Assembly: GCA_030950645.1 (NCBI GenBank)
Contig: JAUZRF010000007.1
Location: forward strand, 1-59,624
Length of the DNA: 59,624 bases
Reading direction: 5' to 3'
Source: Mariprofundales bacterium
Lineage (GTDB): Bacteria > Pseudomonadota > Zetaproteobacteria > Mariprofundales > J009
Numbering within the stretch: the stretch's first letter is position 1; the number at the start of each line of letters is the position of its first letter. The notes beneath the pieces were generated by a model. That model was not told where the DNA came from and ran no database searches. It was given only the letters and a program-made list of their open reading frames with translations. Positions 2,578-55,730 of this stretch are shown here, one piece after another. The translations under genes were made by a program, and so were the position numbers.

Positions 2578-2605
2578 GGGGTTTGCTCCTTGGAGTTGTT
2601 GGGGA

Positions 2606-2757
2606 GTAACTACTCAGCTCACTCCCAGTTTTCCCGATAGCGGCGTTGAAAAATGCTCATTTACAGTAGTAAACTCCGCTTTCTCGCCTTGCTATCAGAA
2701 AAACCGGAAGCGATCTGAGCAGTTACGGGATGTTTTCAATGGGTGCTGAGTAGTTAC
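2606..2757 (+). mobile_element. MITE copy: 121-bp core (2606-2726) plus 37-bp alpha short module (2721-2757)
   Basis: Termini GTAACTACTCAGC ... GCTGAGTAGTTAC. Perfect 8-bp TSD GTTGGGGA at 2598-2605 and 2758-2765. Confidence 0.9.
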
Positions 2758-2769
2758 GTTGGGGATAAG

Positions 2770-2890
2770 GTAACTCCTCAGCTCACTCTCGGTTTTCCTG
2801 ATAGCGGCGTTGAAAAATGCGCATTTACAGTAGTAAACTCCGCTTTTTCGCCTTGTTATCAGGAAAACCGTAAGCAATCTGAGTAGTTAC
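2770..2890 (+). mobile_element. MITE copy, 121-bp core
   Basis: GTAACTCCTCAG...CTGAGTAGTTAC. Perfect 8-bp TSD GGGATAAG at 2762-2769 and 2891-2898. Confidence 0.9.
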
Positions 2891-2905
2891 GGGATAAGAA
2901 AGGAT

Positions 2906-2979
2906 TTACCGCGGAGACGCGGGTTTTTTTAATCCATACAGATTTACTCTCCTTTGTGCCTTCGTGTCTTTGTGGTGAA
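2906..2979. other. Second-family long hairpin, diverged copy (related to 53339-53407)
   Basis: Shares GTGTCTTTGTG, TTTGTGCCT(T)CG, GGTGAAA and ATT(T)ACC.C.GAG with the 53.3-kb hairpin. Contains CCGCGgagaCGCGG followed by T7 (2909-2930). Lies next to a MITE end. Confidence 0.35.
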
Positions 2980-2991
2980 AAACATTCGATT

Positions 2992-7317: not shown

Positions 7318-8669
7318 TATTGAATCACCTTCGGGATGAGTGCGCCAGCGGCAAGATAGAGGTCGCTTTGCGCCTGCAATAGGCCGTAACGGGCGTGAAT
7401 GGCCGCGACTTGCGCTTGGTCATTGGCCACTTGAGCACGGAGAAGGTCGCTGCTTTTCTCTAGCCCTTGTTGGTGCCGTAGGGTGCGGATACGCAGTGCT
7501 TCCGTTCGTTGTTGCGCTATTTGTGCCGCGATGTTTTGCGCCATTTTCGCCTCTTTCAATCCGCGCCAGCGATCAGCTATCTCGGTCTTAATCGACTGGC
7601 GTAGTGCTGCGATATCGCTATCCAATACCGAGATCTTCGCCTCGCTGACGCGTAATTTCGCCTGATCACTGCCACCGGCGAATAGATTGATACTAATAGT
7701 GGCGCCCAGCGCGGTGTTGCGGTTTTTCAAGCCAGGGGTGTTGCTGTTCCACTGTTGGACTGCCATCAGGTCGATATCAGGGAGAAAGGTGGCGCGGGCC
7801 ATGGCGCGGGTCTCATCCAGTGCGCTGCGCTGATATTGTAGCGCGCGCAAACCTTGGCGTTGGGCAAGTGCCTTGGTCTGCCATTGTGTTCGTGAGCCTT
7901 TGATCGCAGCGAGTTCAACCTTCCCTAGAATTTTGACCTTGGGGGTGGCAGTGAGCTGATCAAGAGTATCGCGGGCATGTGCCAGTGCATTGGCGCTGTG
8001 GATGGTGGCGAGTTGGCTCTGTAACAAGTGCGCTTGGGCGTCCATGATGTCACTTTGCAGTGCCATCCCCTGTTGCTGCAATTGCTCGACATCGTGCAAG
8101 CGTTGGCTGGCAGCGTTGGTGGCCAGGGTGTTGGCGCGCTGTTGCGACTGCGCCTCCTTGATAGCGATAAAGGAGGCAATGACTTGTGCAGTGATCTGTT
8201 GTTGCTGCGCCAATCGCAGTGCCTCACTGGCTTGCAGCTGATGATGGGCTTGGGTTTGAGCAGCGGAGATCACACCGCCATGGTAGAGCGGCAGGCTCAG
8301 TGCGGCTTGTGACTGATAATTGGTGACATATCCCGGATGGTTGAGGCGGCGGGGTGCGAAATCCGCAGTGGTGATGCGCCGCTGTTGTAGCAGGCTGCCA
8401 AATGCGCCCATCGGTGAATCGGTGCGTTGCGCGCCGGTGCTTAGATCCAACCGCGGGTAACGCAAGCCTCGGGCAGCATCGCTGGTCGCGGAGGCCGCAT
8501 CAACACTAGAGGATGCGGCAGCTAGGGTGGGGTTGCGTTGGAGCGCGGCTTGAACGGCATCCCGTAGCGTCATCGCAGGTGGCAATGCCGACTGTGCCGC
8601 TACCGGGGTGGCGAATAATAAGATAAGAATGTTCGCAAATAGTGATATTTTAGCGCGCAAAAGGATCAT
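7317..8669 (-). CDS. Outer-membrane efflux protein (TolC family)
   Basis: Two OEP-type repeats with a Gln/Ala-rich coiled coil. Start trimmed to ATG 8669 (MILLRAKISLF..AAQS signal), which overlaps the arsR stop as ATGA. The ORF track extends to 8735. Confidence 0.8.
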   Translation of the reverse strand: MILLRAKISLFANILILLFATPVAAQSALPPAMTLRDAVQAALQRNPTLAAASSSVDAASATSDAARGLRYPRLDLSTGAQRTDSPMGAFGSLLQQRRITTADFAPRRLNHPGYVTNYQSQAALSLPLYHGGVISAAQTQAHHQLQASEALRLAQQQQITAQVIASFIAIKEAQSQQRANTLATNAASQRLHDVEQLQQQGMALQSDIMDAQAHLLQSQLATIHSANALAHARDTLDQLTATPKVKILGKVELAAIKGSRTQWQTKALAQRQGLRALQYQRSALDETRAMARATFLPDIDLMAVQQWNSNTPGLKNRNTALGATISINLFAGGSDQAKLRVSEAKISVLDSDIAALRQSIKTEIADRWRGLKEAKMAQNIAAQIAQQRTEALRIRTLRHQQGLEKSSDLLRAQVANDQAQVAAIHARYGLLQAQSDLYLAAGALIPKVIQ

Positions 8670-9068: not shown

Positions 9069-9190
9069 GTTAACAACTGAGCTCATTCCTGACTTTCTCG
9101 ATAGCTGCGTTGAAAAATGCGCATTTACAGTAGTCAACTCCGTTTTTTCGCCTTGCCATCAGAAAAATCAGAAGTGATCTGAGCAGTTAC
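9069..9190 (+). mobile_element. MITE copy, diverged 121-bp core
   Basis: GTTAACAACTGAGCTCATTCCTGACTTTC...GAAAAATCAGAAGTGATCTGAGCAGTTAC. No TSD recognised. Its right third is read as the last 18 codons of accC. Confidence 0.7.
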
Positions 9191-12430: not shown

Positions 12431-12551
12431 GTAACTACTCAGCTCACTCCCTGTTTTCCTGATAGCGGCGTTGAAAAATGCGCATTTACAGTCGTAAACG
12501 CCGCTTTTTCGCCTTGCCATCATAAAAACCAGAAGCGATCTGAGCAGTTAC
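12431..12551 (+). mobile_element. MITE copy, 121-bp core
   Basis: GTAACTACTCAGCTCACTCCCTG...CCAGAAGCGATCTGAGCAGTTAC. Flanks CATCGAAA / CCTGTTTC do not match, so there is no TSD. Confidence 0.85.
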
Positions 12552-13127: not shown

Positions 13128-13279
13128 GTAACTACTCAGCACCCATTGAAAACATCCCGTAACTGCTTAGATCGCTTCCGGTTTTCCTGATAGCAAGGCG
13201 AAAAAGCGGAGTTTACTACTGTAAATGAGTATTTTTCAACGCCGCTATCGGGAAAACCGGGAGTGAGCTGAGTAGTTAC
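13128..13279 (-). mobile_element. MITE copy: alpha short module (13128-13164) plus 121-bp core (13159-13279)
   Basis: Perfect 8-bp TSD TATTATTG at 13120-13127 and 13280-13287. Sits 8 nt beyond the RBS of the cytochrome c gene. Confidence 0.9.
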
Positions 13280-13320: not shown

Positions 13321-13357
13321 ACAAAAACAGCCACTTGCGATTGTTTGCAAGTGGCTG
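13321..13357 (-). terminator. Rho-independent terminator of tRNA-Glu
   Basis: Stem CAGCCACTTGC / GCAAGTGGCTG (13328-13338 / 13347-13357), followed on the minus strand by TTTTTGT. Confidence 0.75.
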
Positions 13358-13365
13358 TTTGTTAT

Positions 13366-14651: not shown

Positions 14652-14663
14652 TTTTGTTCAAAG

Positions 14664-14966
14664 GTAACTGCTCAGATTGCTTCTGATTTTCCTGATAGCG
14701 GCGTTGAAAAATGCTCATTTACAGTAGTAAACTCCGCTTTTCCGCCTTGCTATCAAGAAAATCAGAAGCAATCTGAGCAGTTACAGTCATTTTTGGGTAG
14801 GGTGCTGAGTAGTTACCAGCACCCATTGATTGAAAACATCCCGTAACGGCACAGATCGCTTCCGGTTTTTCTGATGGTAAGGCAAAAAATCTTAAGTTTA
14901 CTACTGAGCCTCTTGCAAAACTCATGAGCATTTTTCAACGCCGCTATCAGAAAAATCAGTAGTGAT
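14664..14966. mobile_element. Composite MITE cluster: core (14664-14784), beta module (14779-14816), truncated alpha module (14811-14847), decayed inverted core (14843-14966)
   Basis: The whole cluster is flanked by a perfect 8-bp TSD GTTCAAAG (14656-14663 / 14967-14974). The first core has a 28-bp perfect TIR. Confidence 0.85.
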
Positions 14967-15562: not shown

Positions 15563-15683
15563 GTAACTGCTCAGATCGATTCTGGTTTTTTTGATTGCAA
15601 GGCGAAAAAGCGGAGTTTACTACTGTCAATGCGCATTTTTCAACGCCGCTATCGGGAAAGCTGGGAGTGAGCTGAGTAGTTAC
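15563..15683 (-). mobile_element. MITE copy, 121-bp core, abutting a truncated transposase pseudogene
   Basis: GTAACTGCTCAGATCGATTCTGG...GGGAGTGAGCTGAGTAGTTAC. No TSD. The RAYT-like reading frame stops exactly at its right end. Confidence 0.85.
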
Positions 15684-15871
15684 CAGGTGATAATGGTTGC
15701 TCATCAGGCAGTAGGCGTGACATCGCCAGCCAACCGTCCGATCACATGCTTGAGCACATCAAGAAACATGCTCCTATCGTTGTCAGATAGGTAAATTTCT
15801 GTGCGGCCATTGCCCCGAGAGGTTACATGGTACATAGCTCCGTCATACTCAATGCGTAATGATCTTGCCAT
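15684..15871 (-). pseudogene. RAYT-like / IS200-IS605-family Y1 (HUH) transposase, N-terminal fragment, frameshifted and truncated
   Basis: Translates MARSLRIEYDGAMYHVTSRGNGRTEIYLSDNDRSMFLDVLKHVIGRLAGD. After a 1-nt frameshift it continues CHAYCLMSNHYHL (HUH motif) and ends at the MITE terminus. The catalytic-Tyr half is absent. Confidence 0.75.
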
Positions 15872-15895
15872 GCCCATATTCTAGCGTTTGAGATC

Positions 15896-16490: not shown

Positions 16491-16510
16491 CGCATAATTT
16501 TGGTGAATCA

Positions 16511-16536
16511 GGGCGGCTTTTAAGCCGCCCTTTTTT
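16511..16536 (+). terminator. Rho-independent terminator of the cytochrome c2-like gene
   Basis: GGGCGGC-ttttaa-GCCGCCC followed by TTTTTT. Confidence 0.85.
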
Positions 16537-16547: not shown

Positions 16548-16700
16548 GTAACTACTCAGCTTACTTCCGGTTTTCCCGATAGCGGCGTTGAAAAATGCTC
16601 ATTGACAGTAGTAAACTCCGTTTTTTCGCCTTGCTGTCAGAAAATCCAGAGGTAATCTAAGTGGTTACAGCTATTTTTGGGTAGGGTGTTGAGTAGTGAT
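16548..16700 (+). mobile_element. MITE copy: 121-bp core (16548-16668) plus beta module (16663-16700)
   Basis: GTAACTACTCAGCTTACTTCCGG...GGTAATCTAAGTGGTTAC, then AGCTATTTTTGGGTAGGGTGTTGAGTAGTGAT. The TSD is ambiguous: only TGATG is shared. Confidence 0.8.
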
Positions 16701-16764: not shown

Positions 16765-16791
16765 CGTTGCACTGGCATTATGGCCTATATG
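16765..16791. repeat. Left arm of a 27-bp inverted repeat (25/27; partner 16907-16933)
   Basis: CGTTGCACTGGCATTATGGCCTATATG compared with the reverse complement of CATATAAGTCATAATGCCAGTGCAACG. The spacer is 115 bp. Confidence 0.8.
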
Positions 16792-16834
16792 AATTGAACC
16801 CTTTGCGAAGAAAGGTGGGCACCGCATCTGGGTA

Positions 16835-17017
16835 TTAGGTATCCCAATAGAGGGATTCACACAACCTTAGATAGACAAGTTCCCGATCAGTATTCATCGG
16901 CTCAGACATATAAGTCATAATGCCAGTGCAACGAACTTTGTAATGGTTAATAAGCAGGTTTGGTGCCATCACTGGAAAGCCGCCTCGTGAAAAGTCTATT
17001 TTAATCAAAACCATCAT
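16835..17017 (-). CDS. Questionable 60-aa ORF in the glnE-distal spacer
   Basis: The only ORF of 60 aa or more between glnE and the terminator. No convincing RBS and no recognisable motif. Its 3' half overlaps one arm of the 27-bp inverted repeat. Confidence 0.15.
   Translation of the reverse strand: MMVLIKIDFSRGGFPVMAPNLLINHYKVRCTGIMTYMSEPMNTDRELVYLRLCESLYWDT
16907..16933. repeat. Right arm of the 27-bp inverted repeat (partner 16765-16791)
   Basis: CATATAAGTCATAATGCCAGTGCAACG. Confidence 0.8.
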
Positions 17018-19897: not shown

Positions 19898-20020
19898 GTA
19901 ACTACTCAGCTCACTTCCGGTTTTCCCGATAGCGGCGTTGAAAAATGCGCATTATACAGTATGTAAACTCCGCTTTTTCGCCTTGCTATCAGAAAAACCG
20001 GAAGCACTCTGAGTAGTTAC
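19898..20020 (+). mobile_element. MITE copy, 123-bp core
   Basis: Perfect 8-bp TSD CTTGATTC at 19890-19897 and 20021-20028. Confidence 0.9.
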
Positions 20021-20717: not shown

Positions 20718-20834
20718 GTAACTGCTCAGATTGCGCCTTATTTTTCTGACAGCAAGGCGAAACAGCGGAGTTTACTACTGTAAATGCGTATTTTCAACGC
20801 CACTATCGGGAAAACCGGGAGTGAGCTGAGTTAT
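20718..20834 (-). mobile_element. MITE copy, core with eroded right terminus
   Basis: GTAACTGCTCAGATTGCGCC...GGGAGTGAGCTGAGTTAT. No TSD. The TAA stop of the PilZ gene lies in the eroded end. Confidence 0.8.
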
Positions 20835-21421
20835 GTTTCGTCTTCAATCTTTTTGAGACGAATGGATTCCCGGTTGCGTTTGAATACATAGCGCGCCAGC
20901 GAGTTCTCCTCTTCTTGGTCGCGGAAGATAAATTTGATGCCGACGAATGGCTCTCCGGTCTCTTTTTTGCGTATCCACATGATCTTGCCGATGAGCTGCA
21001 TGGTGGTGGGTGGGAAAGTGCTTAATTGCATGATCAGTTCAACTGGTTCACCCCGCCTGTATTGGTGTTCAGGAACCAGCGCAGCACCGGTGCAACTCAG
21101 ATTGATGGGTCGTTCTTTCAGCTGAGCCTGTTCGGCCTGGTTGATCATGTTCGAGCCGATAAGGAAGTTGAGTTTGGCGTCGAGCTGGCTCATGGCATCG
21201 CTTAACTCGGTATTGAGATGGTCGCGCACCTCACTGTTGAACATATCCTTGCTGATCATGCTTTGCAACATCGATGATTGGCGGGATCTGGCATCAATTT
21301 GATGCTTTTTAATCTCAAACTCTTCATGGGTGAGCGGCTCGTCACGGATTGGCATGACATCATTGACTCGAAAATCCTGACGGGAGTTGTCGAGCTCTTT
21401 CTCTAATTTTTTCTTAGCCAT
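20831..21421 (-). CDS. PilZ-domain protein (putative c-di-GMP receptor)
   Basis: C-terminal PilZ-like beta-barrel (ERPINLSCTGAAL...GEPVELIM...GIKFIF..EEE...LARYVF). ATG 21421 has an AAGGAG RBS. The ORF track extends to 21469. Confidence 0.65.
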   Translation of the reverse strand: MAKKKLEKELDNSRQDFRVNDVMPIRDEPLTHEEFEIKKHQIDARSRQSSMLQSMISKDMFNSEVRDHLNTELSDAMSQLDAKLNFLIGSNMINQAEQAQLKERPINLSCTGAALVPEHQYRRGEPVELIMQLSTFPPTTMQLIGKIMWIRKKETGEPFVGIKFIFRDQEEENSLARYVFKRNRESIRLKKIEDET

Positions 21422-21530: not shown

Positions 21531-21567
21531 GTAACTACCCAGCACCCCACCAGAAAATAGCTGTAAC
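21531..21567 (-). mobile_element. Solo 37-bp beta short module with its own TSD
   Basis: GTAACTACCCAGCACCCCACCAGAAAATAGCTGTAAC flanked by perfect TGTAGTCT (21523-21530 / 21568-21575). Confidence 0.8.
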
Positions 21568-22621: not shown

Positions 22622-23485
22622 ATGATCAAACGGTTTTTTCTTTTCCTCTTTTTGTTCCAGATGGTGTTGTTCAACGCGACGCGCGTTGATGCCGCGCGTG
22701 TGCATGCGGAGGCCGTGGGCGTAACCCTGCCACCGCTGGGTGGTATGGTGCAGCTTTTGTTGCCGCAATCGGCACCGATATGCTTGCTCCGCGCCAACGC
22801 AGACCCGCACCATAGCCAGTTGACGCCCCATCAGGTGGAGCAGTTGCGGCGGTTCACGGTGCTGGTGCGTAGCAGTGGCGATGATGGTGGCTGGAGCGGG
22901 CTGAAGCCGCGGAAAAGCGCGAATGGAGCCAGTGGGGGCGCTAGTGGGAGCGGCGTAGTCGATCTGTGGCCGCAAGCGCATCACGCTTGGCTAGTGCCTG
23001 CAGATGTGGAGCACGGCTTGGCAATATTGGTGCCAGGGCTTGGGGCTTTGGCAACGCCGCAACAGCTTGCGCATCAGCAATCGTTGGCAATATCCCGGTT
23101 GCAGCAGTTGGATCGCCGCTGGCGGCAGCTATTGCAGCCGCTTAAACAGCGTGGCGTGATCATGCAGCATCCGGCTTGGCAGCGGCTGTTTGTCCATTAT
23201 GGCATTCCGGTGCGGGCGGTGTTGGAGCTGTCACACCATGGCCATGAGGCGAGTCCCCGTATGTTGGAGAAAACGCTTAAGCTGCTACGAGGCGCCAATC
23301 CGCCGTTGCTGGTGGCGGAGGTGAGTCATACCAATCGCATGCTCGATTGGCTTCATACCCATGCACCGAAATCGCAAATGGTGACGCTGAACGCCTTGGG
23401 CTCTTGTGGTCAGCCGTTGCTGTCGTTGATTGCCGATAATCAACAGATTCTCGCCCGCATGCTTGAACCTTCGACGCAGCCTTGA
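22622..23485 (+). CDS. Periplasmic metal-binding protein of an ABC transporter (ZnuA/TroA-like, divergent)
   Basis: Signal peptide MIKRFFLFLFLFQMVLF. The C-terminal half resembles cluster-9 SBPs (...HHGHEASPRMLEKTLKLLRGANPPLLVAE...). Followed by ATPase and permease genes. Confidence 0.6.
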   Translation: MIKRFFLFLFLFQMVLFNATRVDAARVHAEAVGVTLPPLGGMVQLLLPQSAPICLLRANADPHHSQLTPHQVEQLRRFTVLVRSSGDDGGWSGLKPRKSANGASGGASGSGVVDLWPQAHHAWLVPADVEHGLAILVPGLGALATPQQLAHQQSLAISRLQQLDRRWRQLLQPLKQRGVIMQHPAWQRLFVHYGIPVRAVLELSHHGHEASPRMLEKTLKLLRGANPPLLVAEVSHTNRMLDWLHTHAPKSQMVTLNALGSCGQPLLSLIADNQQILARMLEPSTQP

Positions 23486-24270
23486 GCGCATCGGTTGAGG
23501 TAGAGGGGATCGGCTTCGGAGCCGCATCAGACCCCGTGTTGGAGAACATTACCTTCTCGTTAGCGGCGGGCCATTTTATGGGTATCGTCGGCCCCAACGG
23601 CGCGGGCAAGAGCACGCTGCTGGCGTTGCTGATTGGGATGCTAACTCCCCGTAGCGGCATAGTGCGCTTTGCTGGGGTGGCGATGGATGCCAAACATCGC
23701 CGTAAAATTTTACAGCGGGTGGCTTTTGTGCATCAGTTGCAAGCGCAACACCCCTCGCTACCGATTACGGTGGAAGAGGTGGTGGCAATGGGAGACCCCA
23801 AATTCGGCAGCTGGCTATGGCGTCGTGCCAAGGTGCGCGACCGGATCGCTGAGGCACTGGAATCGGTCGGGATCCTCCACTGCATGGCCAAGGATTTTCG
23901 TGTTTTATCGGGTGGGCAGCGCCAGCGGGTGCGGTTGGCGCGCGCCTTGATGCGCAATCCCACCGTGCTCTTGCTTGATGAGCCCTCGGCGGCTCTTGAT
24001 ACCCAAGCACAAGACCAACTCTACCGATTATTGCGCCAGCTGTGCGATCAACAGGGCAAGACCATTATTATGGTTGAGCATGATATTGCTGCAATTTCTT
24101 CTTTTGTGGATTCGGTGGCCTGCCTCAACCGCCGCATTCATCACCACGCCATGGCTGGTGAGCAGATTCCACCGCAGGTGTGGCAGGATATGTACGGATC
24201 ACACATGCATGTGATGGCACATGATCACGCTTGCATTGGTTGCCAGCAGCCGGAGGTCACGGTGGTATGA
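23482..24270 (+). CDS. znuC: Metal (Zn/Mn-type) ABC transporter ATP-binding protein
   Basis: Walker A GPNGAGKST, signature LSGGQRQR and Walker B LLLDEP. The TTG start overlaps the upstream stop. Confidence 0.85.
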   Translation: MSASVEVEGIGFGAASDPVLENITFSLAAGHFMGIVGPNGAGKSTLLALLIGMLTPRSGIVRFAGVAMDAKHRRKILQRVAFVHQLQAQHPSLPITVEEVVAMGDPKFGSWLWRRAKVRDRIAEALESVGILHCMAKDFRVLSGGQRQRVRLARALMRNPTVLLLDEPSAALDTQAQDQLYRLLRQLCDQQGKTIIMVEHDIAAISSFVDSVACLNRRIHHHAMAGEQIPPQVWQDMYGSHMHVMAHDHACIGCQQPEVTVV

Positions 24271-24272
24271 TG

Positions 24273-24425
24273 GTAACTACTCAGCTCACTCCCAGTTTTC
24301 CTGATTGCGGCGTTGAAAAATACTCATTTACAGTAGTAAACTCCGCTTTTTCGCCTTGTTATCAGAAAAACCGGAAGCAATCTGAGCAGTTACAGCCATT
24401 TTTTGGTAGGGTGCTTAGTAGTTAC
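24273..24425 (+). mobile_element. MITE copy: 121-bp core (24273-24393) plus beta module (24388-24425)
   Basis: 7/8 TSD GTATGATG (24265-24272) / GCATGATG (24426-24433). Inserted between the znuC stop and the znuB start. Confidence 0.9.
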
Positions 24426-24427
24426 GC

Positions 24428-25255
24428 ATGATGGATGGTTTTTTTGCCAGCGAGGTGATGCGTGATGCCTTGTGGCCAGCGCTGCTGATCGCAGTGGTCG
24501 CCTCCACGGTATCGGTGATGGTGTTGGCGCATCGGCTATCATTTCTCACCGTCGGGGTGGCGCACGCTTCATTGGCAGGGTTGGGACTGGCGGCGGTGAC
24601 AGGGTTGCCTTTATTGCCGATGGCCTCGCTGGTAGCGGTCAGTGTGGCGCTGCTTTTGCCATGGATGCCAACCGGCAAAGGTATCCACAACGATGCTGCC
24701 TCCGGGATGCTGTTTTCTGGAAGTATGGCGCTGGGGGTGTTGCTATTGGCAGGTGCTGATCGTCAGCAGGTGGATATTTTTGGTCTGCTTTTTGGCAATA
24801 TTCTATTGATTTCGCAGCAAGACATATCATATCTGATGTTGATATCCTGTGGGGTGATGGTTGCGGTGGCTTGGGCGGCGCGGGTGTGGTGGAGCATCGC
24901 CTTTGATGCCACCACGGCCGAGGCGAATGGGGTGCCGGTGCAGCGTTATCGCCTGCTGCTCTATGCGGTGGTTGGCTTAACGGTGATTCTGTGTGTCAAA
25001 TTGGCAGGGGTGGTGCTGACTACCGGACTGATGGTGCTGCCGGCAGCAATCGCCTGGTTCTGGGGGCGGTCGTTATGGTCGTTGTGGTGGGTGAGTATGG
25101 TGGCTGCCATCACCGGTGTGTTTGGTGGTTTGATGGTCTCATACGCCGCCGACTGGCCCGCCGGAGCGACCATTGTGATGATGCTGTGCCTGTTGTTTTG
25201 TGGCAGTTGGGGTACGCAATGGTTGATGCAGCGTGATCGCCGTTCGCAGATATAG
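24428..25255 (+). CDS. znuB: Metal ABC transporter permease (ABC-3 family)
   Basis: 275 aa with 8-9 TM helices, typical ZnuB/MntB-like. Its ATG lies within the right TSD copy. Confidence 0.85.
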   Translation: MMDGFFASEVMRDALWPALLIAVVASTVSVMVLAHRLSFLTVGVAHASLAGLGLAAVTGLPLLPMASLVAVSVALLLPWMPTGKGIHNDAASGMLFSGSMALGVLLLAGADRQQVDIFGLLFGNILLISQQDISYLMLISCGVMVAVAWAARVWWSIAFDATTAEANGVPVQRYRLLLYAVVGLTVILCVKLAGVVLTTGLMVLPAAIAWFWGRSLWSLWWVSMVAAITGVFGGLMVSYAADWPAGATIVMMLCLLFCGSWGTQWLMQRDRRSQI

Positions 25256-25277: not shown

Positions 25278-25309
25278 TGGGATGTTTTCAATGGGTGCTG
25301 AGTAGTTGC
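25278..25309 (+). repeat. Solo alpha short-module fragment
   Basis: GGATGTTTTCAATGGGTGCTGAGTAGTTGC. Lacks the GTTAC left end. Read as the last 8 codons and stop of birA. Confidence 0.55.
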
Positions 25310-26082
25310 GGTAAATGGATGACATCGGCGGTTACTACGCGTTGGATGCCATTATCGCGGGCAACTAACAGTGCGCCATCATCATCAAGCTTGATGGCGG
25401 TGCCTTGCCAGGGTTGCGAACCTTCATTGACCCGCACCATGTGGCCATCGCCATGGGCTTGCCACCATGCGTTGGCTATTGGCGTGAATCCCTGGGCGCG
25501 TAACTGAGTATAGCGGCGATCGAGCTGCAATAGGATTCGGGGGAGCCAAACATTGGCATCCGAGTCGACATTCTGCTCTGCCAGCGAGGTTGCAGGTAGC
25601 CGGAAGTTGTTGGCCCAGCCATCATGGGGGGTGCGCAGATTGATTCCAATACCGATCACTACTGCATTGATGCGCGTTCCATCGGTAGCCGTTCCGGTGC
25701 GCATTTCGGTAAGGATTCCCGCTATTTTCTTGCCATCCACCAGGAGGTCGTTGGGCCATTTTAGTCGGGAATTCGGTAAGTTCAGGGCATCAAAGAGTGC
25801 CAGTGCGGTCAGTAGCGAGAGGGTGGATGCCCGTTGTGGCGGCAGCCAGGTGGGGCGTAGCAGTACACTCATGATCAGGCTCTCATCCGTACCGGATTGC
25901 CAGCGCCGACCCAGACGGCCGCGTCCACAGCGTTGGCTCCGGGCGGTGACGATTAACCCTTCGGCTGCGCCCTCCTCAGCCTGGCGTAGCGCAACATCAT
26001 TGGTGGAATCGACGCTATCAAGCGCCAAGTGGTGCCAGGATATTTGGCTATCTGGCAGGTGGAGTGGGGTGGGGGCGATCAT
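25288..26082 (-). CDS. birA: Biotin--[acetyl-CoA-carboxylase] ligase (group I, no HTH domain)
   Basis: GRGRLGRRWQS motif and BPL_LplA_LipB core. The C-terminus ..LPQLLSTH is encoded by a repeat fragment. Confidence 0.9.
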   Translation of the reverse strand: MIAPTPLHLPDSQISWHHLALDSVDSTNDVALRQAEEGAAEGLIVTARSQRCGRGRLGRRWQSGTDESLIMSVLLRPTWLPPQRASTLSLLTALALFDALNLPNSRLKWPNDLLVDGKKIAGILTEMRTGTATDGTRINAVVIGIGINLRTPHDGWANNFRLPATSLAEQNVDSDANVWLPRILLQLDRRYTQLRAQGFTPIANAWWQAHGDGHMVRVNEGSQPWQGTAIKLDDDGALLVARDNGIQRVVTADVIHLPQLLSTH

Positions 26083-26942
26083 GGTTTTTTCGCCTTGCTA
26101 TCAGAAAAACCGGAATCAATTTGAGTAGTTATTAAAAGGGAGAGGTCGAGTGCGGCTGCGGAGTGGGTGATGCTACCCATGGCGATGCGATCCACCCCGC
26201 GCAGCGCATAGTCGCGAGCGTTGGCCGCCGTGATGCCGCCGCTGGCTTCTAATGTGATTGATTCGGGCACCAGCGCGCGCGCGGCCGCGACTTGATCTGG
26301 GGTCATGTTATCGAGCAAGATCATCTCTGGGGCGCAAGCTACCGCTTGTGATACCTCATCGAGGGTCTCGCACTCCACCTCAATCCAGCCGGTGGCCGCA
26401 CTTGCCCGGCAGCGTGCAATCGCCTCAGCAATGGATCCTGTGGCTGCGATATGGTTCTCCTTGATTAAAAAGCCTCCGGCCAGATCGGGGCGATGATTGA
26501 TGCCGCCACCGTGCACTACCGCCTGCTTCTCCAGAGCTCGCAATCCCGGCGTGGTTTTTCGGGTGTCGGCAACGGTGCAATGGGTATCCGCTATCCGCTG
26601 CACGACCGCATGGGTGGCGGTAGCGATGCCGGAGAGGTGTTGTAGGAAATTGAGCGCTACCCGCTCCGCACTCAGAATGGAACGCGCCGATCCGGTGATG
26701 GTGGCGACCACATCGCCACCCTGCACTGCTTGACCATCACGCAGCGGCCACACTTGCTGGAGCTCGGGATCGCGGGTGGAAAACAGCTGACGCGCGAGCC
26801 CTACCCCGGAGAGCACCCCCTTCGCTTTGGCAATGATGCGGGCACTGGCCTGCAGATTAACACCAATCGTTGCCTGTGCCGTAATATCGTGATTCGCAGC
26901 ATCCTCGGCCAGAGCTAGGGTAATCAAGTCGACGGTGTTCAC
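26079..26942 (-). CDS. nadC: Nicotinate-nucleotide pyrophosphorylase (carboxylating)
   Basis: QPRTase fold (..DTRKTTPGLRALEKQAVVHGGGINHR..IEVECETL..). The last ~16 aa (TTQIDSGFSDSKAKKP) are MITE-derived. ATGA overlap with birA. Confidence 0.9.
   Translation of the reverse strand: MNTVDLITLALAEDAANHDITAQATIGVNLQASARIIAKAKGVLSGVGLARQLFSTRDPELQQVWPLRDGQAVQGGDVVATITGSARSILSAERVALNFLQHLSGIATATHAVVQRIADTHCTVADTRKTTPGLRALEKQAVVHGGGINHRPDLAGGFLIKENHIAATGSIAEAIARCRASAATGWIEVECETLDEVSQAVACAPEMILLDNMTPDQVAAARALVPESITLEASGGITAANARDYALRGVDRIAMGSITHSAAALDLSLLITTQIDSGFSDSKAKKP
26085..26131 (+). repeat. Partial MITE core (right-hand ~47 bp only)
   Basis: TTTTTCGCCTTGCTATCAGAAAAACCGGAATCAATTTGAGTAGTTAT. The left half is missing and the deletion endpoint lies 2-3 nt from the birA ATG. 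Confidence 0.65.
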
Positions 26943-28712: not shown

Positions 28713-29815
28713 TCCTCTTTTTTGAGTAATGTCAGCCGTTCTTGCATCTGCTTTGCCCACTCCAGCGCCTTGCTGTATTCCTTGTTTTTCGGGGCCAGTG
28801 TCACCGCTTGCTGCCACAGTGTAATCGCTTTATCTAACTTTTCTTGTTTTACCGCCATCCGCCCGTGATTGAAAAACAGCTGCGCCTGATGGGATAATTG
28901 TTGGAGTAATTTTCCCGCATTGGCGCCTTGCTGGCGTTTCCATGCCAGTGCATATTGGCGTGCTTTGACCCATTGCTGGGCAGCAATCATCTGTTTAATG
29001 GTGGCCCCATTGAGATTGGGCAGTGCGTGTTTGGCTTTGGGTTTTCTGATTCGTGAGGATGATTTGATTCTCGTGAGATGAATCTGCGGAGGTAGTTGCT
29101 TGGCTACCTTATCCAACAATCCTTGGGCTTGGTTGGCTCCCGGATCCAGCCTTAGTGCGGACTGCAGCTCGGCGTAGGCGAGTTCGGGAAGATTGTCATG
29201 CAGATAGCCGTTGGCCTTGGAGTAGGCGCTTTGTGACTGCTCCTCCACCGCATTCCAGCGCGCCTCCTGCCACGCTTTAATGCGAGGGTCATTACGGAGT
29301 TGTTTGGGGGGGGTCAACGCTTTTGGATGTGCTAGTAGATCGCGATCCTCGGCTTGTAAGGCTTTGCGTAGGATGTCAAACCGTAGTTGCCGCATTTTCA
29401 TGATCACCCTGGTGCGTTGTTGTTGCCAGCGTTTTGGGCGAATGGAGAAGTAGGCTGCTTGGCCAAAATCTTGCGCCGCCATTTTCCACTTGTTATGTTT
29501 TTCTCGTAGCCGAGCGCGATCCAGATAGAACTGTAGCATTTTGAGTCGTGAAGGGTCGATGTGCTGATGTAATAGCGTTTGCGCTGCGGCATAATCCTCG
29601 CGAGATTTGTCCATCGCAACGATTTTTGCACGGGCCTCCATCACATGACCGAGTTCAAAATCGTGCAATGCCGATTTGTAATTGTTGAGGAAGTTGAAGG
29701 CCGAGGGCTTTGCCCGAGGCTGCATCCCCGAAGTCAGGGCGCATCCTGAAGTGATCGTCAGCAGACAACATAATGTGATCCATTTATAATCCATAATTTT
29801 GATAGGCTCCGTCAT
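28709..29815 (-). CDS. Lipoprotein with helical/TPR-like repeats, function unknown
   Basis: Lipobox LTITSGC, then an alpha-helical, Lys/Gln-rich 368-aa protein. No catalytic motif recognised. Confidence 0.55.
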   Translation of the reverse strand: MTEPIKIMDYKWITLCCLLTITSGCALTSGMQPRAKPSAFNFLNNYKSALHDFELGHVMEARAKIVAMDKSREDYAAAQTLLHQHIDPSRLKMLQFYLDRARLREKHNKWKMAAQDFGQAAYFSIRPKRWQQQRTRVIMKMRQLRFDILRKALQAEDRDLLAHPKALTPPKQLRNDPRIKAWQEARWNAVEEQSQSAYSKANGYLHDNLPELAYAELQSALRLDPGANQAQGLLDKVAKQLPPQIHLTRIKSSSRIRKPKAKHALPNLNGATIKQMIAAQQWVKARQYALAWKRQQGANAGKLLQQLSHQAQLFFNHGRMAVKQEKLDKAITLWQQAVTLAPKNKEYSKALEWAKQMQERLTLLKKEE

Positions 29816-29841: not shown

Positions 29842-29962
29842 GTAACTACTCAGCTCACTTCCGGTTTTTCCGATAGCGGCGTTGAAACATGCCCATTTAC
29901 AGTAGTAAACTCCGCTTTTTCGCCTTGCTATCAGGAAAACCGGAAGTGAGCTGAGTAGTTAC
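29842..29962 (+). mobile_element. MITE copy, 121-bp core with A-type sequence at both ends (27-bp perfect TIR)
   Basis: Perfect 8-bp TSD ATGTCAGG at 29834-29841 and 29963-29970. Confidence 0.9.
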
Positions 29963-33590: not shown

Positions 33591-33691
33591 GTAACAGCTC
33601 AGGGACGATCTGAGTAGTTACCACCCCTTGAAAATATCTGAGCGTTTTTCAGTGCCGCTATCGGGAAAACCGAGAGTGCGCTGAGTAGCTA
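33591..33691. repeat. Decayed MITE remnants (mini end-to-end unit plus partial core)
   Basis: GTAACAGCTCAGggacgatCTGAGTAGTTAC (33591-33621), then ...TTTTTCAGTGCCGCTATCGGGAAAACCGAGAGTGCGCTGAGTAGCTAC (to 33691). Confidence 0.5.
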
Positions 33692-33726
33692 CCAGCGTTG
33701 AATATGTATGTAAGGAGACAACCAAG

Positions 33727-37484: not shown

Positions 37485-38031
37485 TGGTAACGAACTAGCC
37501 GCGCTGAAGCTTCGGTATCGCTGGCTGATTTTGCTGCTTTTGGCGGCGGGGTTGACGGTTTTCGAGTCACTACTGCCATCGTTTGGCCCTTGGTTCAAGC
37601 CGGGTCTGGCCAATATCGTCACCCTGATCGCATTGGCGCTGCTTGGTGCGCGGGCGGCCTTTACGCTGGCGTTGGCACGGGTGGTGATCGGAAGCTTTTT
37701 TCTCGGTACCCTATTCACCCCCACCATGGTGGTTAGTGCAACGGCCGCACTGGTGGCTGCCGGGACGATGGTGGTGCTGTGGCGTGCCAATATTGGTCTA
37801 TCCTTGGTCGGCATCAGTTTGGCTGCTGCCATCGCGCATATGGTGACCCAGTTCATGGTGGTGGAGTGGTGGATTGTGCAGCAACCGGCACTGTTTTATC
37901 TGCTTCCACCGCTGTTGCTGTTGGCTGCTTTGACTGGCTGGATCAATGGAACCCTTGCCCAATATGTTACGCGTCGCTTGGAATCATGCGGTTATGGTAA
38001 CTACTCAGCACCCTACCGAAAAAGCCTTTAG
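37468..38031 (+). CDS. Gx transporter-family membrane protein (Hpre_diP_synt_I-like)
   Basis: Five TM helices (..GLANIVTLIALALLGARAAFTLALARVVIGSFFLG..). The last ~11 aa are read from a short-module fragment. Confidence 0.6.
   Translation: MPWRSDGNELAALKLRYRWLILLLLAAGLTVFESLLPSFGPWFKPGLANIVTLIALALLGARAAFTLALARVVIGSFFLGTLFTPTMVVSATAALVAAGTMVVLWRANIGLSLVGISLAAAIAHMVTQFMVVEWWIVQQPALFYLLPPLLLLAALTGWINGTLAQYVTRRLESCGYGNYSAPYRKSL
37997..38026 (-). repeat. Beta short-module fragment
   Basis: GTAACTACTCAGCACCCTACCGAAAAAGCC. Lacks the distal GTAAC. Confidence 0.5.
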
Positions 38032-41150: not shown

Positions 41151-41172
41151 TTTGCTTCAGGTTGGATGGAAT

Positions 41173-41447
41173 GTAACTACTGAGGTAACTACTCAGCTCA
41201 CTCCCGGTTTTCCTGATAGCGGCGTTGAAAAATGCTCATTTACAGTAGTAAACTCCGCTTTTTCGCCTTGCTATCAGGAAAACCGGAAGCGATCTGAGCA
41301 GTTACGGGTGCTGAGTAGTTACCTACTGAGATCACTTCTGGCTTTTCCGGTAGCGGCGTTGAAAAATGCGCGTTTACAGTAGTAAACGCTGCTTTTTCGC
41401 CTTGCCATCAAAAAACCAGAAAAATAAGAAGCGATCTGAGCAGTTAC
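41173..41447 (+). mobile_element. Outer MITE copy, split by a nested insertion (41173-41184 plus 41323-41447)
   Basis: Perfect 8-bp TSD GATGGAAT at 41165-41172 and 41448-41455. Carries a 9-bp internal insertion. Confidence 0.9.
41185..41322 (+). mobile_element. Inner MITE copy (121-bp core 41185-41305 plus minimal short module to 41322) nested in the terminus of the outer copy
   Basis: Flanked by perfect CTACTGAG (41177-41184 / 41323-41330), which is nt 5-12 of the outer element's own terminal repeat. Confidence 0.9.
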
Positions 41448-41472
41448 GATGGAATCAATATTGGAGGCCGAA

Positions 41473-43899: not shown

Positions 43900-44021
43900 A
43901 TAACTGCTCAGATCGCTTTCGGTTTTTTCCGATAGTAAGGCGAAAAAGTGGAGTTTACTTATTATAAATAAGCGTTTTCAACGCAGCTATCGGGAAAACT
44001 GGGAGTGGGCTGAGTAGTTAC
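43900..44021 (-). mobile_element. MITE copy, diverged core
   Basis: ATAACTGCTCAGATCGCTTTCGG...GGGAGTGGGCTGAGTAGTTAC. The TSD is only approximate (TTTTTCGG / ATTTTCGG with a 1-nt offset). Confidence 0.8.
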
Positions 44022-45232: not shown

Positions 45233-45418
45233 GTAACTACTCAGATTGCTCCCGTTTTTCCTGATAGTGGCGTTGAAAAATGCCCATTTACAGTAGTAAA
45301 CTCCGCTTTTTCGCCTTGCTATCAGAAAAACCGGAAGCAATCTGAGCAGTTACAACCATTTTTTGGGTAGGGTGCCGAGCAGTTACAGCCAGTTTTTGGT
45401 AGGGTGCTAAGTAGTTAC
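45233..45418 (+). mobile_element. MITE copy: 121-bp core (45233-45353) plus two tandem beta modules (45348-45386, 45381-45418)
   Basis: 7/8 TSD TTCCACCG (45225-45232) / TTCCGCCG (45419-45426). The outer terminus reads CTAAGTAGTTAC, so the gcvPB strand has TAG in place of the usual CAG. Confidence 0.9.
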
Positions 45419-48934: not shown

Positions 48935-49055
48935 GTAACTACTCAGATTGCGTCTGGTTTTCCCGATAGCGGCGTTGAAAAATGCTCATTTACAGTAGTA
49001 AACTCCGCTTTTTCGCCTTGCTATCAGAAAAACCAGACAAAATCTGAGTAGTTAC
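48935..49055 (+). mobile_element. MITE copy, 121-bp core (arm-covarying variant)
   Basis: GTAACTACTCAGATTGCGTCTGG...CCAGACAAAATCTGAGTAGTTAC. No TSD recognised. Confidence 0.85.
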
Positions 49056-50489: not shown

Positions 50490-50493
50490 GGCG

Positions 50494-52568: not shown

Positions 52569-52577
52569 CGGCGAAAA

Positions 52578-53324: not shown

Positions 53325-53338
53325 GTAGAAAAGAAATT

Positions 53339-53407: not shown

Positions 53408-53424
53408 GAAACTTCAGTTTTTTC

Positions 53425-53545
53425 GTAACTGCTCAGATTGCTTCCGGTTTTTCCGGTAGCAAGGCGAAAAAGCGGAGTTTACTACTGTAAATGAGCATTT
53501 TTCAACGCCGCTATCGGGAAAACCGGGAGTGATCTGAGTAGTTAC
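53425..53545 (-). mobile_element. MITE copy, 121-bp core
   Basis: GTAACTGCTCAGATTGCTTCCGG...GGGAGTGATCTGAGTAGTTAC. No TSD. Its right 35 nt are the last 11 codons of thiE. Confidence 0.85.
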
Positions 53546-54185
53546 ATTCTTGGTCGCCGTTCCACAGTTGCATCAATTGGCGTGCTTGCTTTGTGATGTC
53601 ATTGGCGGCAAAGAGGCCGGAGATGATTGCTGCGGCATCAGCTCCGGCGGCTTGTACTGCTATCACATTGCTGGCATCAATGCCGCCAATGGCGATTAGG
53701 TTGGCGTCGGGGAAGAAGCTGCGTGCCTTGGCTAGACGAGGTAGACCAATGGCGGGCACCTCGGCCTTGCTTGTGCTGGGGAATATTGCACCGAAGGAGA
53801 GGTAGGATGCACCATTGGTCAGTGCAGATTTGGCCAGTGCGGCATCGGCGCGGCAGGTGATGCCCACGATGAGTCCGGCCTCGCGCGCATTGGTGATCTC
53901 CTGCCAGGTGGGCATATCCTCGCGCCCTAAATGGACGCCATCGGCACCGCTCTCGGTGGCTAGTGGAATCGAGTCGTTGATGATGAGGGTCGCGTCGTAG
54001 AGCCGGCATAGCTGGCGCAGGCTAGTGGCGCGCTTGAGGCCGCGTCTGAATCCCTGCTTTTTGTCGCGTAGTTGTAGGGTGTGAATGCCGCCGTCGAGTG
54101 CGGATTCCGCTTTGGCTAGTAGCGATTTTAGCGGCAGATCTGCGGGAAGGATGGCATAGATTCCCGCGATACGCGAGGCCGTCAC
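53511..54185 (-). CDS. thiE: Thiamine-phosphate synthase
   Basis: TMP-TENI fold (..LQLRDKK.., ..IGGI..). The C-terminal ..CNYSDHSRFSR is MITE-encoded. Confidence 0.9.
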   Translation of the reverse strand: MTASRIAGIYAILPADLPLKSLLAKAESALDGGIHTLQLRDKKQGFRRGLKRATSLRQLCRLYDATLIINDSIPLATESGADGVHLGREDMPTWQEITNAREAGLIVGITCRADAALAKSALTNGASYLSFGAIFPSTSKAEVPAIGLPRLAKARSFFPDANLIAIGGIDASNVIAVQAAGADAAAIISGLFAANDITKQARQLMQLWNGDQECNYSDHSRFSR

Positions 54186-54850
54186 TCGGAGTGCGGTAGG
54201 CCGAAGGTGGGCAGAAGTTGGGAAAAGTGGTCGATCGCCGTTACTTGATCGCGCAGATCCTCAGGTAGCGGCTGGTAGCCATGGGAGATATGCACCGTGG
54301 TATGGCAACCAGCAGCGATACCCGCTTCGAGATCAAAGCGGGTATCGCCGACCATGATGGTCTCGTTCGTCGGTACCCCCATCACCTCGCAGCAGGCCAG
54401 CAGCATGTCGGGCGCTGGTTTTTTGGCATAGCCATCCTCAGGTGATAGTGCGTGGCTGAATAGCGGTATAATATCCAGTATTTCCAGCACCTTAATGCGG
54501 GCAACAGTTGGTTTAGCGGTGACACAGGCGAGTTTTACCCCGGCATGGTTCAAGGTCTGCAGCGTCTCCATCACCCCAGGGAACGGGCGTCCGAAATCGG
54601 CGGGGTGTTGGACATAAATCTGCGTGAAACGGTGGTAAAGCGCCATGGTTTCAGGGTCATCCATCGCCTTGCCCAGCACCGAAGCGGCCAGCTTTTGTGC
54701 GCCACCACCGACATGGGGTCGGGTTTGATCGCTACTCAACTGGAAATCGTAGCCCAGCTCCTGTAGCGCCATGTTCACATTGGCGCGTATATCAGGAAGG
54801 GCATCCACTAGGGTGCCATCGAGATCGAAGATCGCTGCACGCGCATTCAT
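54182..54850 (-). CDS. gph: HAD-family phosphatase, phosphoglycolate phosphatase-like
   Basis: AAIFDLDGTLVD motif I and VGDTRFDLEAG motif IV. Confidence 0.7.
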   Translation of the reverse strand: MNARAAIFDLDGTLVDALPDIRANVNMALQELGYDFQLSSDQTRPHVGGGAQKLAASVLGKAMDDPETMALYHRFTQIYVQHPADFGRPFPGVMETLQTLNHAGVKLACVTAKPTVARIKVLEILDIIPLFSHALSPEDGYAKKPAPDMLLACCEVMGVPTNETIMVGDTRFDLEAGIAAGCHTTVHISHGYQPLPEDLRDQVTAIDHFSQLLPTFGLPHSE

Positions 54851-54861
54851 AGCTAGCGCGG

Positions 54862-55581
54862 TTACTCGATTGCCAGCAGTTCTACATCAAAGATCAAGGT
54901 GCTGTTGGGGCCGATTTTTCCACCAGCGCCACGCTTGCCGTAGGCTAGATCTGATGGCAAGAAGAGGCGGATTTTGCCGCCGACCTTGATCAGTTGCAGC
55001 CCTTCGGTCCAGCCTTTGATGACGCCATTGAGCGGAAAACTGACCGGCTTGCCACGGTCGTAGGAGGAGTCGAATACGGTGCCATCAATCAGGGTACCTT
55101 TGTAATTGACTTTGACCTTGTCCGTCGCCTTGGGTACTGCGCCATCGCCTTCGGTGAGAATGATATATTGCAGGCCGCTAGCGGTGGTCTTTACCCCCGC
55201 TTTTTTGGCGTTCTCTGCTAGGAAGGCTTCCCCCGCTTTTTTGTTTTTCCCTCCCTTTGCTTTGCGTGCAAACATCGCTTTCTCCTGTTTCTTTTTCATC
55301 GTGGTTTGAATGACTTTGCGCGCATCTGCTGGAGATATTCTGGGTTTGCCATGGTCGATGGAGGTCTGGATCGCTTCGAGCAGTGCCGCTTTGTCGAGCT
55401 TGACCGGAAAGCGTTGCAGCGAGGAGCCAAAGTTGAGGCCAACTGCGTAGCTAAATTTGCTACTTTCACTTTTCAATGGGGTGGGTGCGGCGTTGCTTGA
55501 GGTTGCCTCGCTGCTACAGGCACCGACCAATAGCGCAGCGGTAGCCAGTGCAATGGTGGTGAATTTTTTGGAAGGGTTCAT
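54862..55581 (-). CDS. FKBP-type peptidyl-prolyl cis-trans isomerase (FkpA/FklB/Mip-like lipoprotein)
   Basis: C-terminal FKBP domain ..VNYKGTLIDGTVFDSS...GVIKGWTEGL...LAYG.. ATG 55581 has an AAGGAG RBS and an LVGAC lipobox. The ORF track extends to 55620. Confidence 0.85.
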   Translation of the reverse strand: MNPSKKFTTIALATAALLVGACSSEATSSNAAPTPLKSESSKFSYAVGLNFGSSLQRFPVKLDKAALLEAIQTSIDHGKPRISPADARKVIQTTMKKKQEKAMFARKAKGGKNKKAGEAFLAENAKKAGVKTTASGLQYIILTEGDGAVPKATDKVKVNYKGTLIDGTVFDSSYDRGKPVSFPLNGVIKGWTEGLQLIKVGGKIRLFLPSDLAYGKRGAGGKIGPNSTLIFDVELLAIE

Positions 55582-55603
55582 AGGGATGCTCCTTAGAATT
55601 AAA

Positions 55604-55682
55604 GTAACTACCCAGTTCACTCCCGGTTTTTCCGATAGCGGCGTTGAAAAATGCGCATTTACAGTACAACCTGAGCAGTTAC
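55604..55682 (+). mobile_element. MITE copy with ~42-bp internal deletion (79 bp)
   Basis: GTAACTACCCAGTTCACTCCCGG...CATTTACAGTAcaaCCTGAGCAGTTAC. 7/8 TSD GAATTAAA (55596-55603) / GAATTGAA (55683-55690). Confidence 0.85.
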
Positions 55683-55730
55683 GAATTGAAAAGGCGGCGC
55701 ACTCTAGGTGATGGGATGGGACTCGTCACC

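Follow-up and report, generated by a model that had tools for sequence, protein, structure and literature searches.

This analysis concerns a family of short palindromic repeats in the window, by which we mean the whole stretch of 59,624 nucleotides under study (contig JAUZRF010000007.1, assembly GCA_030950645.1): one whole metagenomic contig from an uncultured, iron-oxidising Mariprofundales bacterium. Our conclusion is that the repeats are very probably non-autonomous DNA transposons, that is, MITEs (miniature inverted-repeat transposable elements), moved in trans, most likely by a transposase of the ISBst12 type. The family is real and undescribed, and of a well-known MITE type; its unusual points are its reiterated ends and its local density.

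The basic unit, or core, is a near-perfect palindrome of 121 base pairs (bp) with terminal inverted repeats of 12-13 bp, GTAACTRCTCAGC ... GCTGAGYAGTTAC. The first 40 nucleotides of a consensus drawn up in an earlier, sequence-only reading of the window recur, if up to 3 mismatches are allowed, at 14 sites; 100 shuffles give no such match. Compared to the window with BLASTN, the full consensus of 121 nucleotides finds 20 full or almost full copies, in one orientation or the other and with 81-98% identity to it, and a set of partial copies: a right-arm fragment at 26086-26132, a left-arm fragment at 33639-33692, an internally deleted copy at 55604-55682 and a weak fragment at 140-189. In 59.6 kb the family counts about 23 copies, spread over 21 loci, or roughly one copy per 2.5 kb; this dispersed multiplicity is typical of MITEs. 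The sequence-only reading had announced at least 22 loci in both orientations, and the search returns about 20 full and 3-4 partial copies. It had also put the coverage at about 3.1 kb, or about 5% of the window, a value close to the one measured: elements and the companion modules described below occupy 3,032 bp and so account for 5.1% of the window and, outside the gene map, for 45% of the bases. Its statement that the family fills most intergenic spacers is right about the heavy presence, but slightly overstates it. The units measure 37-186 bp, within the MITE range of under about 600 bp, and contain no transposase gene: the sole reading frame in the element is a read-through of 40 codons, without family match.

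The ends of the element, GTAACTRCTCAG, occur at 54 sites, paired and facing outward, as terminal inverted repeats do; the terminal 12-mer GTAACTACTCAG likewise has 54 sites in the window at no more than 2 mismatches. GTAAC is present at both ends of nearly all copies. In the window, the left end reads GTAACTACTCAGCT and the right end GTAACTGCTCAGAT. Many copies carry, outside the right end of the core, one or two further modules, the companions, whose end reads GTAACTACTCAGCA. There are about 14 of these, 17-33 bp long, each terminating in a further right end GGGTGCTGAGTAGTTAC, and their spacer comes in two flavours, AGCCATTTTTGGTA and GGGATGTTTTCAAT. That such modules exist had been seen before, with a count of about 12 and lengths of 32-37 bp that our measurements replace. 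The companion is a third, reiterated end of the element, not a separate family.

The evidence that the copies were inserted lies in their flanks. Taking the outermost outward-facing ends as the boundaries of each unit, we compared the flanking octamers of 21 units: 10 units have perfect 8-bp direct repeats and 3 have repeats that match at 7 positions out of 8, which makes 13 of 21 at 7/8 or better. When left and right octamers are taken from different loci, none of the 420 pairs reaches 7/8, and when the octamers are shifted by 1-12 nucleotides, 0-1 of the 21 units match. Such a duplication of fixed length, here 8 bp, is a further mark of a MITE. The ten perfect and three near-perfect repeats are those of the sequence-only reading, each found where it had placed them, and the test that it had proposed, flanking octamers against shuffled controls, comes out in its favour within the window, with mismatched and shifted octamers as controls. 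The target octamers are AT-rich, with 40% GC against 56% for the window, and have no fixed motif. The units and fragments are the following.

2606-2757, forward: core 2606-2726 and 31-bp companion 2727-2757; duplication GTTGGGGA at 2598-2605 and 2758-2765.
2770-2890, forward: 121-bp core; duplication GGGATAAG, 8/8; 4 bp from the target site of its neighbour.
9070-9190, forward: diverged core, 87.5% identical to the consensus; no duplication.
12431-12551, forward: 121-bp core; no duplication.
13128-13279, reverse: core 13159-13279 and companion 13128-13158; duplication TATTATTG, 8/8; downstream of tRNA-Glu.
14664-14966, mixed strands: rearranged double element, bracketed by GTTCAAAG, 8/8; its parts are a core 14664-14784 (forward), a companion 14785-14816, a truncated companion 14817-14842 (reverse) and a degenerate core without left end 14843-14966 (reverse).
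15563-15683, reverse: 121-bp core; no duplication; abuts and truncates a Y1 (IS200-like) transposase pseudogene.
16548-16698, forward: core 16548-16668 and degenerate companion; no duplication.
19898-20020, forward: 123-bp core; duplication CTTGATTC, 8/8; orthologous spacer empty in a relative, L001.
20718-20837, reverse: core with degenerate left end; no duplication; overlaps by 7 nucleotides the 3' end of a PilZ-domain gene.
21531-21567, reverse: solo unit of 37 bp, GTTAC and companion; duplication TGTAGTCT, 8/8.
24273-24425, forward: core and companion; duplication GTATGATG/GCATGATG, 7/8.
26086-26132, forward: right-arm fragment of 47 bp.
28560-28712, reverse: companion 28560-28590 and core; duplication TCCTCTTT, 8/8.
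29842-29962, forward: 121-bp core of type L-L'; duplication ATGTCAGG, 8/8.
33591-33692, reverse: 31-bp unit of two ends only, 33591-33621, beside the left-arm fragment of 54 bp, 33639-33692.
37997-38026, reverse: solo companion-type end.
41173-41447, forward: outer copy, split after base 12 by an inner copy; duplication GATGGAAT, 8/8.
41185-41322, forward: inner nested copy, core and 17-bp companion; duplication CTACTGAG, 8/8.
43900-44021, reverse: core, 88.5% identical; flanks alike only if an indel is allowed.
45233-45418, forward: core and two tandem companions, 45354-45386 and 45387-45418; duplication TTCCACCG/TTCCGCCG, 7/8.
48935-49055, forward: 121-bp core of type R'-R (the left arm is of right-arm type); no duplication.
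53425-53545, reverse: 121-bp core, 96.7% identical; no duplication; overlaps by 35 nucleotides the 3' end of thiE.
55604-55682, forward: internally deleted copy of 79 bp; duplication GAATTAAA/GAATTGAA, 7/8.
55-80, forward: fragment of a companion-type end, GGGGTGCTGAGTCGTTAC, with a similar one at 25285-25309.

Three configurations show the flanking repeats to be products of insertion, and a fourth, an empty site in another species, points the same way. At the nested site, 41165-41455, the octamer CTACTGAG that flanks the inner copy is made of bases 5-12 of the end of the outer copy, whose own duplication GATGGAAT is intact. Between positions 2598 and 2898, two adjacent and independent insertions have targets, GTTGGGGA and GGGATAAG, that overlap by 4 bp in the reconstructed GTTGGGGATAAG. 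The third configuration is an operon junction: unit 24273-24425 sits exactly between znuC (23482-24270) and znuB (24428-25255), with the stop codon of znuC in the left octamer GTATGATG and the start codon of znuB in the right octamer GCATGATG; thus, the original ATGA overlap of the two genes was duplicated, and both genes were left intact. Lastly, the spacer between glnE and rnfE in the relative L001 (GCA_033968495.1, RnfE 85% identical) is 66 bp long and without element: one octamer-equivalent, GTGAAATC, is found where the window has CTTGATTC-element-CTTGATTC, in a different species with diverged flanks. The claim that the copies are transposition products, and not terminators or repeats of the repetitive extragenic palindromic (REP) type, is supported by the duplication statistics and by these configurations. 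One of its ten perfect pairs, at 14656 and 14967, needs another description: the repeat is indeed 8/8, but it brackets the rearranged double element and not a single insertion.

The duplications also suggest which pieces move as units. Lengths of 37, 121, 138, 153 and 186 bp are each found between duplications: the 121-bp core alone (copies 2770, 19898 and 29842), the core with one companion (2606-2757, 13128-13279, 28560-28712 and 24273-24425), the core with a 17-bp companion (41185-41322), the core with two companions (45233-45418), and the 37-bp solo unit (21531-21567). Since each length bears its own duplication, the element is best described as one left end followed by a series of alternative right ends, of which each combination looks mobile.

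We now turn to the transposase. Annotation with Pfam and NCBIfam detects no transposase gene in the window save an unrelated Y1 pseudogene fragment, in agreement with the earlier remark that no autonomous element is present. Insertion sequences (IS) of the IS66 family have ends that start with GTAA, and produce 8-bp direct repeats at insertion (PMC11946415). Both features are found in the MITE, and together they indicate the IS66 family; the similarity of the ends extends beyond GTAA. The ends of canonical IS66 elements, which have three open reading frames (ORFs), begin with GTAAGCG, unlike those of the window element (PMC11946415). ISDge4 of Deinococcus geothermalis, a member of the ISBst12 group, is reported to end in GTGACTACTCAGCA and GTAACTGCTCAGCA, to duplicate 8 bp at its target and to encode a single transposase of 449 amino acids (PMC12898284). 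An IS66-like element on Geobacillus pHTA426 has ends GTATCTATTCAGCC / GTAACTATTCAGCC and the octamer GACGAGTT on both flanks, and its transposase carries the Pfam domain DDE_Tnp_IS66. The ends and duplications of further elements are:

Deinococcus wulumuqiensis plasmid homologue: end GTAACTGCTCAGCA; duplication 8/8.
Bacillus thuringiensis plasmid homologue: end GTAACTACTCAGCTT, equal to the left end of the MITE over 14 nucleotides; duplication 5/8.
Oceanisphaera plasmid homologue: end GTAACTATTCAGCTT; duplication 2/8.
Acaryochloris plasmid homologue: end GTTACTGCCCAGGCT; duplication 8/8.
Niveispirillum plasmid homologue: end GTAATTGCTCA; duplication 8/8.
ISKpn15: end GTAAGTATTCACC; duplication 8/8.

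The MITE ends are identical, over 12-14 of 14 nucleotides, to those of the single-ORF IS66-family elements of B. thuringiensis, Deinococcus, Geobacillus and Oceanisphaera. Members of the ISBst12 group (ISDge4, ISKpn15, ISAs21 and the pHTA426 element) share with the family the GTAACTNYTCAGC terminal repeat, the GTAA start and the 8-bp duplication. They differ from it in size and content, being 1.4-1.7 kb long with a DDE_Tnp_IS66 transposase of about 450-485 amino acids, whereas the window element has 121-186 bp and no gene; unlike them, it is a palindrome throughout, with reiterated right ends. The mobiliser is most likely a DDE transposase of the ISBst12 type that acts in trans, from a gene elsewhere in the genome or in the community; we infer both its identity and its present activity.

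Assuming such a transposase, the history of the copies could be as follows. The protein would bind two inverted ends, excise or copy the element, and join it to target DNA cut with a stagger of 8 bp, whose repair would yield the 8-bp duplication. Any left end could pair with any of the reiterated right ends, giving units of 37, 121, 138, 153 or 186 bp. The surviving insertions would be those in short spacers, often at or within the 3' ends of genes, where the duplication, or the TAA contained in the GTAAC of the element, would restore a stop codon, so that insertions would be tolerated even inside operons. Later recombination among copies, and between arms, would produce mismatched flanks and the arm-swapped variants L-L' and R'-R, and would also keep the two arms complementary.

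This last point calls for a closer look at the palindrome. The consensus folds as one long hairpin, with -25.9 kcal/mol (z -5.4) for the DNA fold and -47.5 kcal/mol (z -6.7) for the RNA fold; the imperfect palindrome reported earlier, with its apex TTTAC-AGTA-GTAAA, is present and has a strong predicted fold. Across 23 copies, diverged ones included, 90.6% of the cells of the full hairpin are paired. Both sides have changed in 18 pairs, where shuffles give 7.6 ± 1.9 such pairs and sliding the partners gives 4-10; the count was made on a single-sequence fold (RNAalifold failed to recover the full hairpin). Alignment reveals arms that are mosaics: in copies 14664, 45233 and 48935 the left arm complements the usual right arm, in copy 29842 the right arm is exactly complementary to the left arm of the same copy, and the arms of copy 53425 and of L007a, from a related genome, are hybrids. 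The kept pairing could reflect selection on the hairpin. It could just as well come from exchange, either of one arm with the other or, at the palindromic centre, among copies in opposite orientation; the arm-swapped copies speak for some exchange at least.

If selection is retained, one may imagine that the element is more than a selfish MITE: a selected hairpin and a three-ended architecture, as a mode of mobility not reported before, would have driven its burst to about 5% of the genome. Selection on the hairpin across subfamilies has its basis in the 18 double changes with pairing kept and in the central core, which can still be made out in a distant genome; the proposal as a whole we regard as unlikely. 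The hairpin may then serve the transposition of the element itself, as a DNA hairpin or cruciform substrate, or act on host transcripts, as a 3'-end hairpin or an RNase III site. With a left end and, on the right, an internal end followed by one or two outer ones, one transposase may move a nested series of units of 37-186 bp. If true, the burst would have reshaped the 3' ends of many genes and the junctions of operons in one lineage of Mariprofundales.

Transposition in trans by an ISBst12-type protein has to be weighed against several observations. Eight full copies (9070, 12431, 15563, 16548, 20718, 43900, 48935 and 53425) lack a duplication; these would be products of recombination or decay, and within the window we find among them no reciprocal exchange of flanks, the sign of an inversion. 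The comparison with an empty site rests on one orthologous site, in another species with diverged flanks. Neither the window nor the few fragments of related genomes yield an ISBst12-type transposase, and the shared end is short, 12-14 nucleotides, though it recurs in seven independent insertion sequences. The last two points are also those that speak for a MITE moved by another DDE family with 8-bp duplications (ISL3, IS6, IS1595, IS256 or IS1), the likeness to ISBst12 being a coincidence. In the established ISfinder descriptions, the ends of these families start with GG... or Ga/g and are not known to start with GTAA. A coincidence would moreover have to account for the GTAACTNYTCAGC end in seven independent single-ORF elements of the IS66 family, from four phyla, and we give this alternative little credit.

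A very improbable account is that of a repeat selected by the host for its structure or regulation, a terminator, an mRNA-stabilising hairpin or a promoter cassette, whose spread was driven by function. The hairpin is very stable, with two-sided changes that keep its pairing across subfamilies; many copies lie at gene 3' ends; in the composites of core and companion, the companion puts a T-run just after the hairpin; and every copy of subfamily 1 contains the promoter-like motif TTGAAA-18-TAAACT. However, with respect to the upstream gene the copies are about equally divided, half sense and half antisense (for composites, 5 sense and 3 antisense), and we rejected a terminator role of the T-run for this lack of bias. 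The promoter-like motif, lost in the diverged subfamily 2, is likewise rejected as a conserved feature. A T-run-bearing copy lies inside the znu operon, and the same sites are without copies in close relatives. Arm swapping can explain the complementarity without selection. A host function leaves the duplications, the empty site and the lack of orientation bias unexplained. Some effect on transcripts may exist; as a side-effect, it would not account for the spread.

Still less probable is a repeat of the REPIN kind, a palindrome that a REP-associated Y1 (HUH) transposase would have spread. It could call on the long hairpin, on the GTAG contained in the apex loop, and on the N-terminus of a Y1_Tnp-like pseudogene, IS200-like or RAYT-like (YHVTSRGN...NHYHLV), at 15684-15877, on the reverse strand, beside copy 15563-15683. 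Yet Y1 transposition is not known to make a target duplication, and 13 of the 21 units have one of 8 bp. The palindrome is 121 bp long, and its ends match those of DDE-type elements of the IS66 family. The pseudogene, the sole Y1 gene, is frameshifted, is cut right after NHYHLV by the MITE copy, and is not flanked by the element; its Pfam Y1_Tnp match has an E-value of 0.017, below threshold.

The idea of an assembly artefact, with collapsed or spuriously joined repeats, draws on the fact that the window is a whole 59.6-kb metagenomic contig and that proteins reading into the element in a related metagenome-assembled genome (MAG) are "partial", at contig ends; its probability is negligible, with copies that differ from one another (81-98% identity to the consensus), that have unique flanks with matching duplications, that lie between intact and correctly ordered housekeeping genes and operons, and that have relatives in independent assemblies.

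With transposition retained as the origin of the copies, it is natural to ask how far the family extends. The RnfE protein of the window is closest to proteins of uncultured Mariprofundales and Zetaproteobacteria MAGs, with identities of 92%, 85%, 84% and lower. A scan of the genome collection with a 21-nucleotide core pattern detects at least 5 stretches, with 3 fragments of Mariprofundaceae MAGs and 2 chance hits among the matches listed. In the related fragments the family is represented as follows.

Mariprofundaceae MAG JAUZQS01 (L007): one copy at 93% and one at 70%.
Mariprofundus MAG JALUWF01 (L004, L006): one copy at 84% and one half copy.
L001 (GCA_033968495.1, RnfE 85%): one copy in 11 kb.
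L012-L014 (RnfE 78-81%): 0 copies in 42 kb.
L008 (GlnE 47% identity): one element with shared central core and different ends.

Close relatives carry few or no copies: the high density is a lineage-specific expansion. The 74%-identical copy of L001, a composite flanked by AGTGAAGG/AATGAAGG (7/8), and the 70%-identical copy of L007 each have a companion; the presence of companions in such diverged copies implies that the composite form is old. A search with the read-through peptide of 40 amino acids gives only two "partial" proteins, both from one NCBI Mariprofundales MAG (locus tags Q9M26_), and both run on into a companion. In a metagenome scan with GlnE the matches listed are all distant relatives (at most 47% identity), with no orthologous loci among them, and a scan of viral contigs with an end-gap-end pattern gives no match. 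In L008, at 8016-8138 on the reverse strand, lies a palindromic element that contains the central ~85 nucleotides of the MITE (…GCGTCAAGCATGCTCACTTACAACAGTAAGTTCCGCG…) between ends TCATTG…. From a comparison of these sequences, the core may predate the GTAAC-ended family or reach further than it.

Neither the consensus nor the window has an Rfam family match at the gathering score for the element, BLAST of the consensus and companion against a plasmid collection gives nothing meaningful, and searches of the searchable literature bring up neither a MITE from Zetaproteobacteria nor one ascribed to IS66 or ISBst12. A likeness to the plant microRNA precursor MIR7526 (28582-28721, 40.8 bits for a threshold of 110) was rejected as a generic resemblance between long hairpins, not homology.

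Among known repeats, the Correia elements of Neisseria (CREE/NEMIS) have 26-bp ends and a TA duplication, and make up about 1-2% of the genome. The window element differs by its IS66-type ends of 12-13 bp, its 8-bp duplication and its local coverage of about 5%, and has no sequence similarity with them. The likeness lies elsewhere: Correia elements are abundant intergenic MITEs of about 100-160 bp, which form long hairpins when transcribed and are found in both orientations, at gene ends and within operons (compare the table in PMC3184786). PMC3184786 describes ERIC/IRU of enterobacteria and RUP of pneumococci as dispersed, non-coding, imperfect palindromes of about 107-127 bp, often co-transcribed; their sequences are unrelated to ours, and their ends and duplications are of other types. 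It also presents Nezha and Chunjie, of cyanobacteria and Geobacter, which like our family are MITEs defined by ends shared with an IS, by duplications, and by empty and filled sites. Their duplications are of 10 bp for Nezha and 9 bp for Chunjie, against 8 bp here, with other partner IS and other sequences; Nezha, considered as the closest MITE, was rejected on its 10-bp duplication. Finally, REPs and REPINs, mobilised by RAYT proteins, are also palindromic, intergenic and highly repeated. REPs have 20-40 bp and a GTAG or CGTC head (PMC3733652). They are GC-rich palindromes that are not known to duplicate their target, and they go with an intact RAYT gene, which they flank; the window element has 121 bp, DDE-type ends and 8-bp duplications, and the one Y1 gene beside it is a truncated pseudogene.

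The genes of the window form an ordinary housekeeping run, as annotated with Pfam and NCBIfam, that includes an RND efflux system, accBC, glnE, rnfE, tilS, znuACB, birA and nadC, as well as ispG, icd, hppA, gcvPB, cysS, argFD and thiDE. The copies occupy the short spacers of this run, very often at gene 3' ends, to which they contribute sequence:

accC: last 19 codons and stop codon (copy 9070-9190).
nadC: last ~17 codons (right-arm fragment 26086-26132).
thiE: ~11 codons.
gcvPB: 12 nucleotides.
Gene 28709-29815: stop codon, from the TAA of the terminal GTAAC.
trmB: last base of the stop codon (copy 43900-44021).

For annotation, the consequences are spurious ORFs and altered annotated C-termini of accC, nadC, thiE and gcvPB; for assembly, one copy per 2.5 kb means that assemblies will break. 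Clean natural cases in the window show how an insertion at an overlapping stop/start junction survives thanks to its 8-bp duplication. The family gives the Zetaproteobacteria, which as a class are known almost exclusively through metagenomes, a well-documented MITE, and ties it to the little-studied single-ORF ISBst12 branch of IS66. It leaves the general understanding of MITEs unchanged. It is of use for the annotation of Zetaproteobacteria genomes and as a probable natural record of ISBst12-type transposition, though unsurprising in kind.

Some minor observations concern the neighbourhood of the copies. An ATGA stop/start overlap at 26079-26082 joins nadC to birA, and another, in the region 24268-24430, joined znuC to znuB until the MITE came in. 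A native intrinsic terminator at 16510-16531 (forward), AGGGCGGCTTTTAAGCCGCCCT followed by a T-run, comes after a cytochrome c gene and just upstream of a MITE copy, and a terminator with a 14-bp stem, at 13325-13360 (reverse), comes after tRNA-Glu, also just upstream of a copy; since they adjoin MITE copies, native terminators persist beside insertions. The region 16765-16932 (reverse) is a probable 6S RNA (SsrS) gene, a match to the full-length model RF00013 of Rfam with 45.0 bits and E 4e-8: its score is just below the gathering score of 46.4, so that a scan at the gathering threshold misses it. This region, about 90-95% identical to positions ~800-1047 of L001, exceeds the genes on either side in conservation; its fold has -72.7 kcal/mol (z -4.1).

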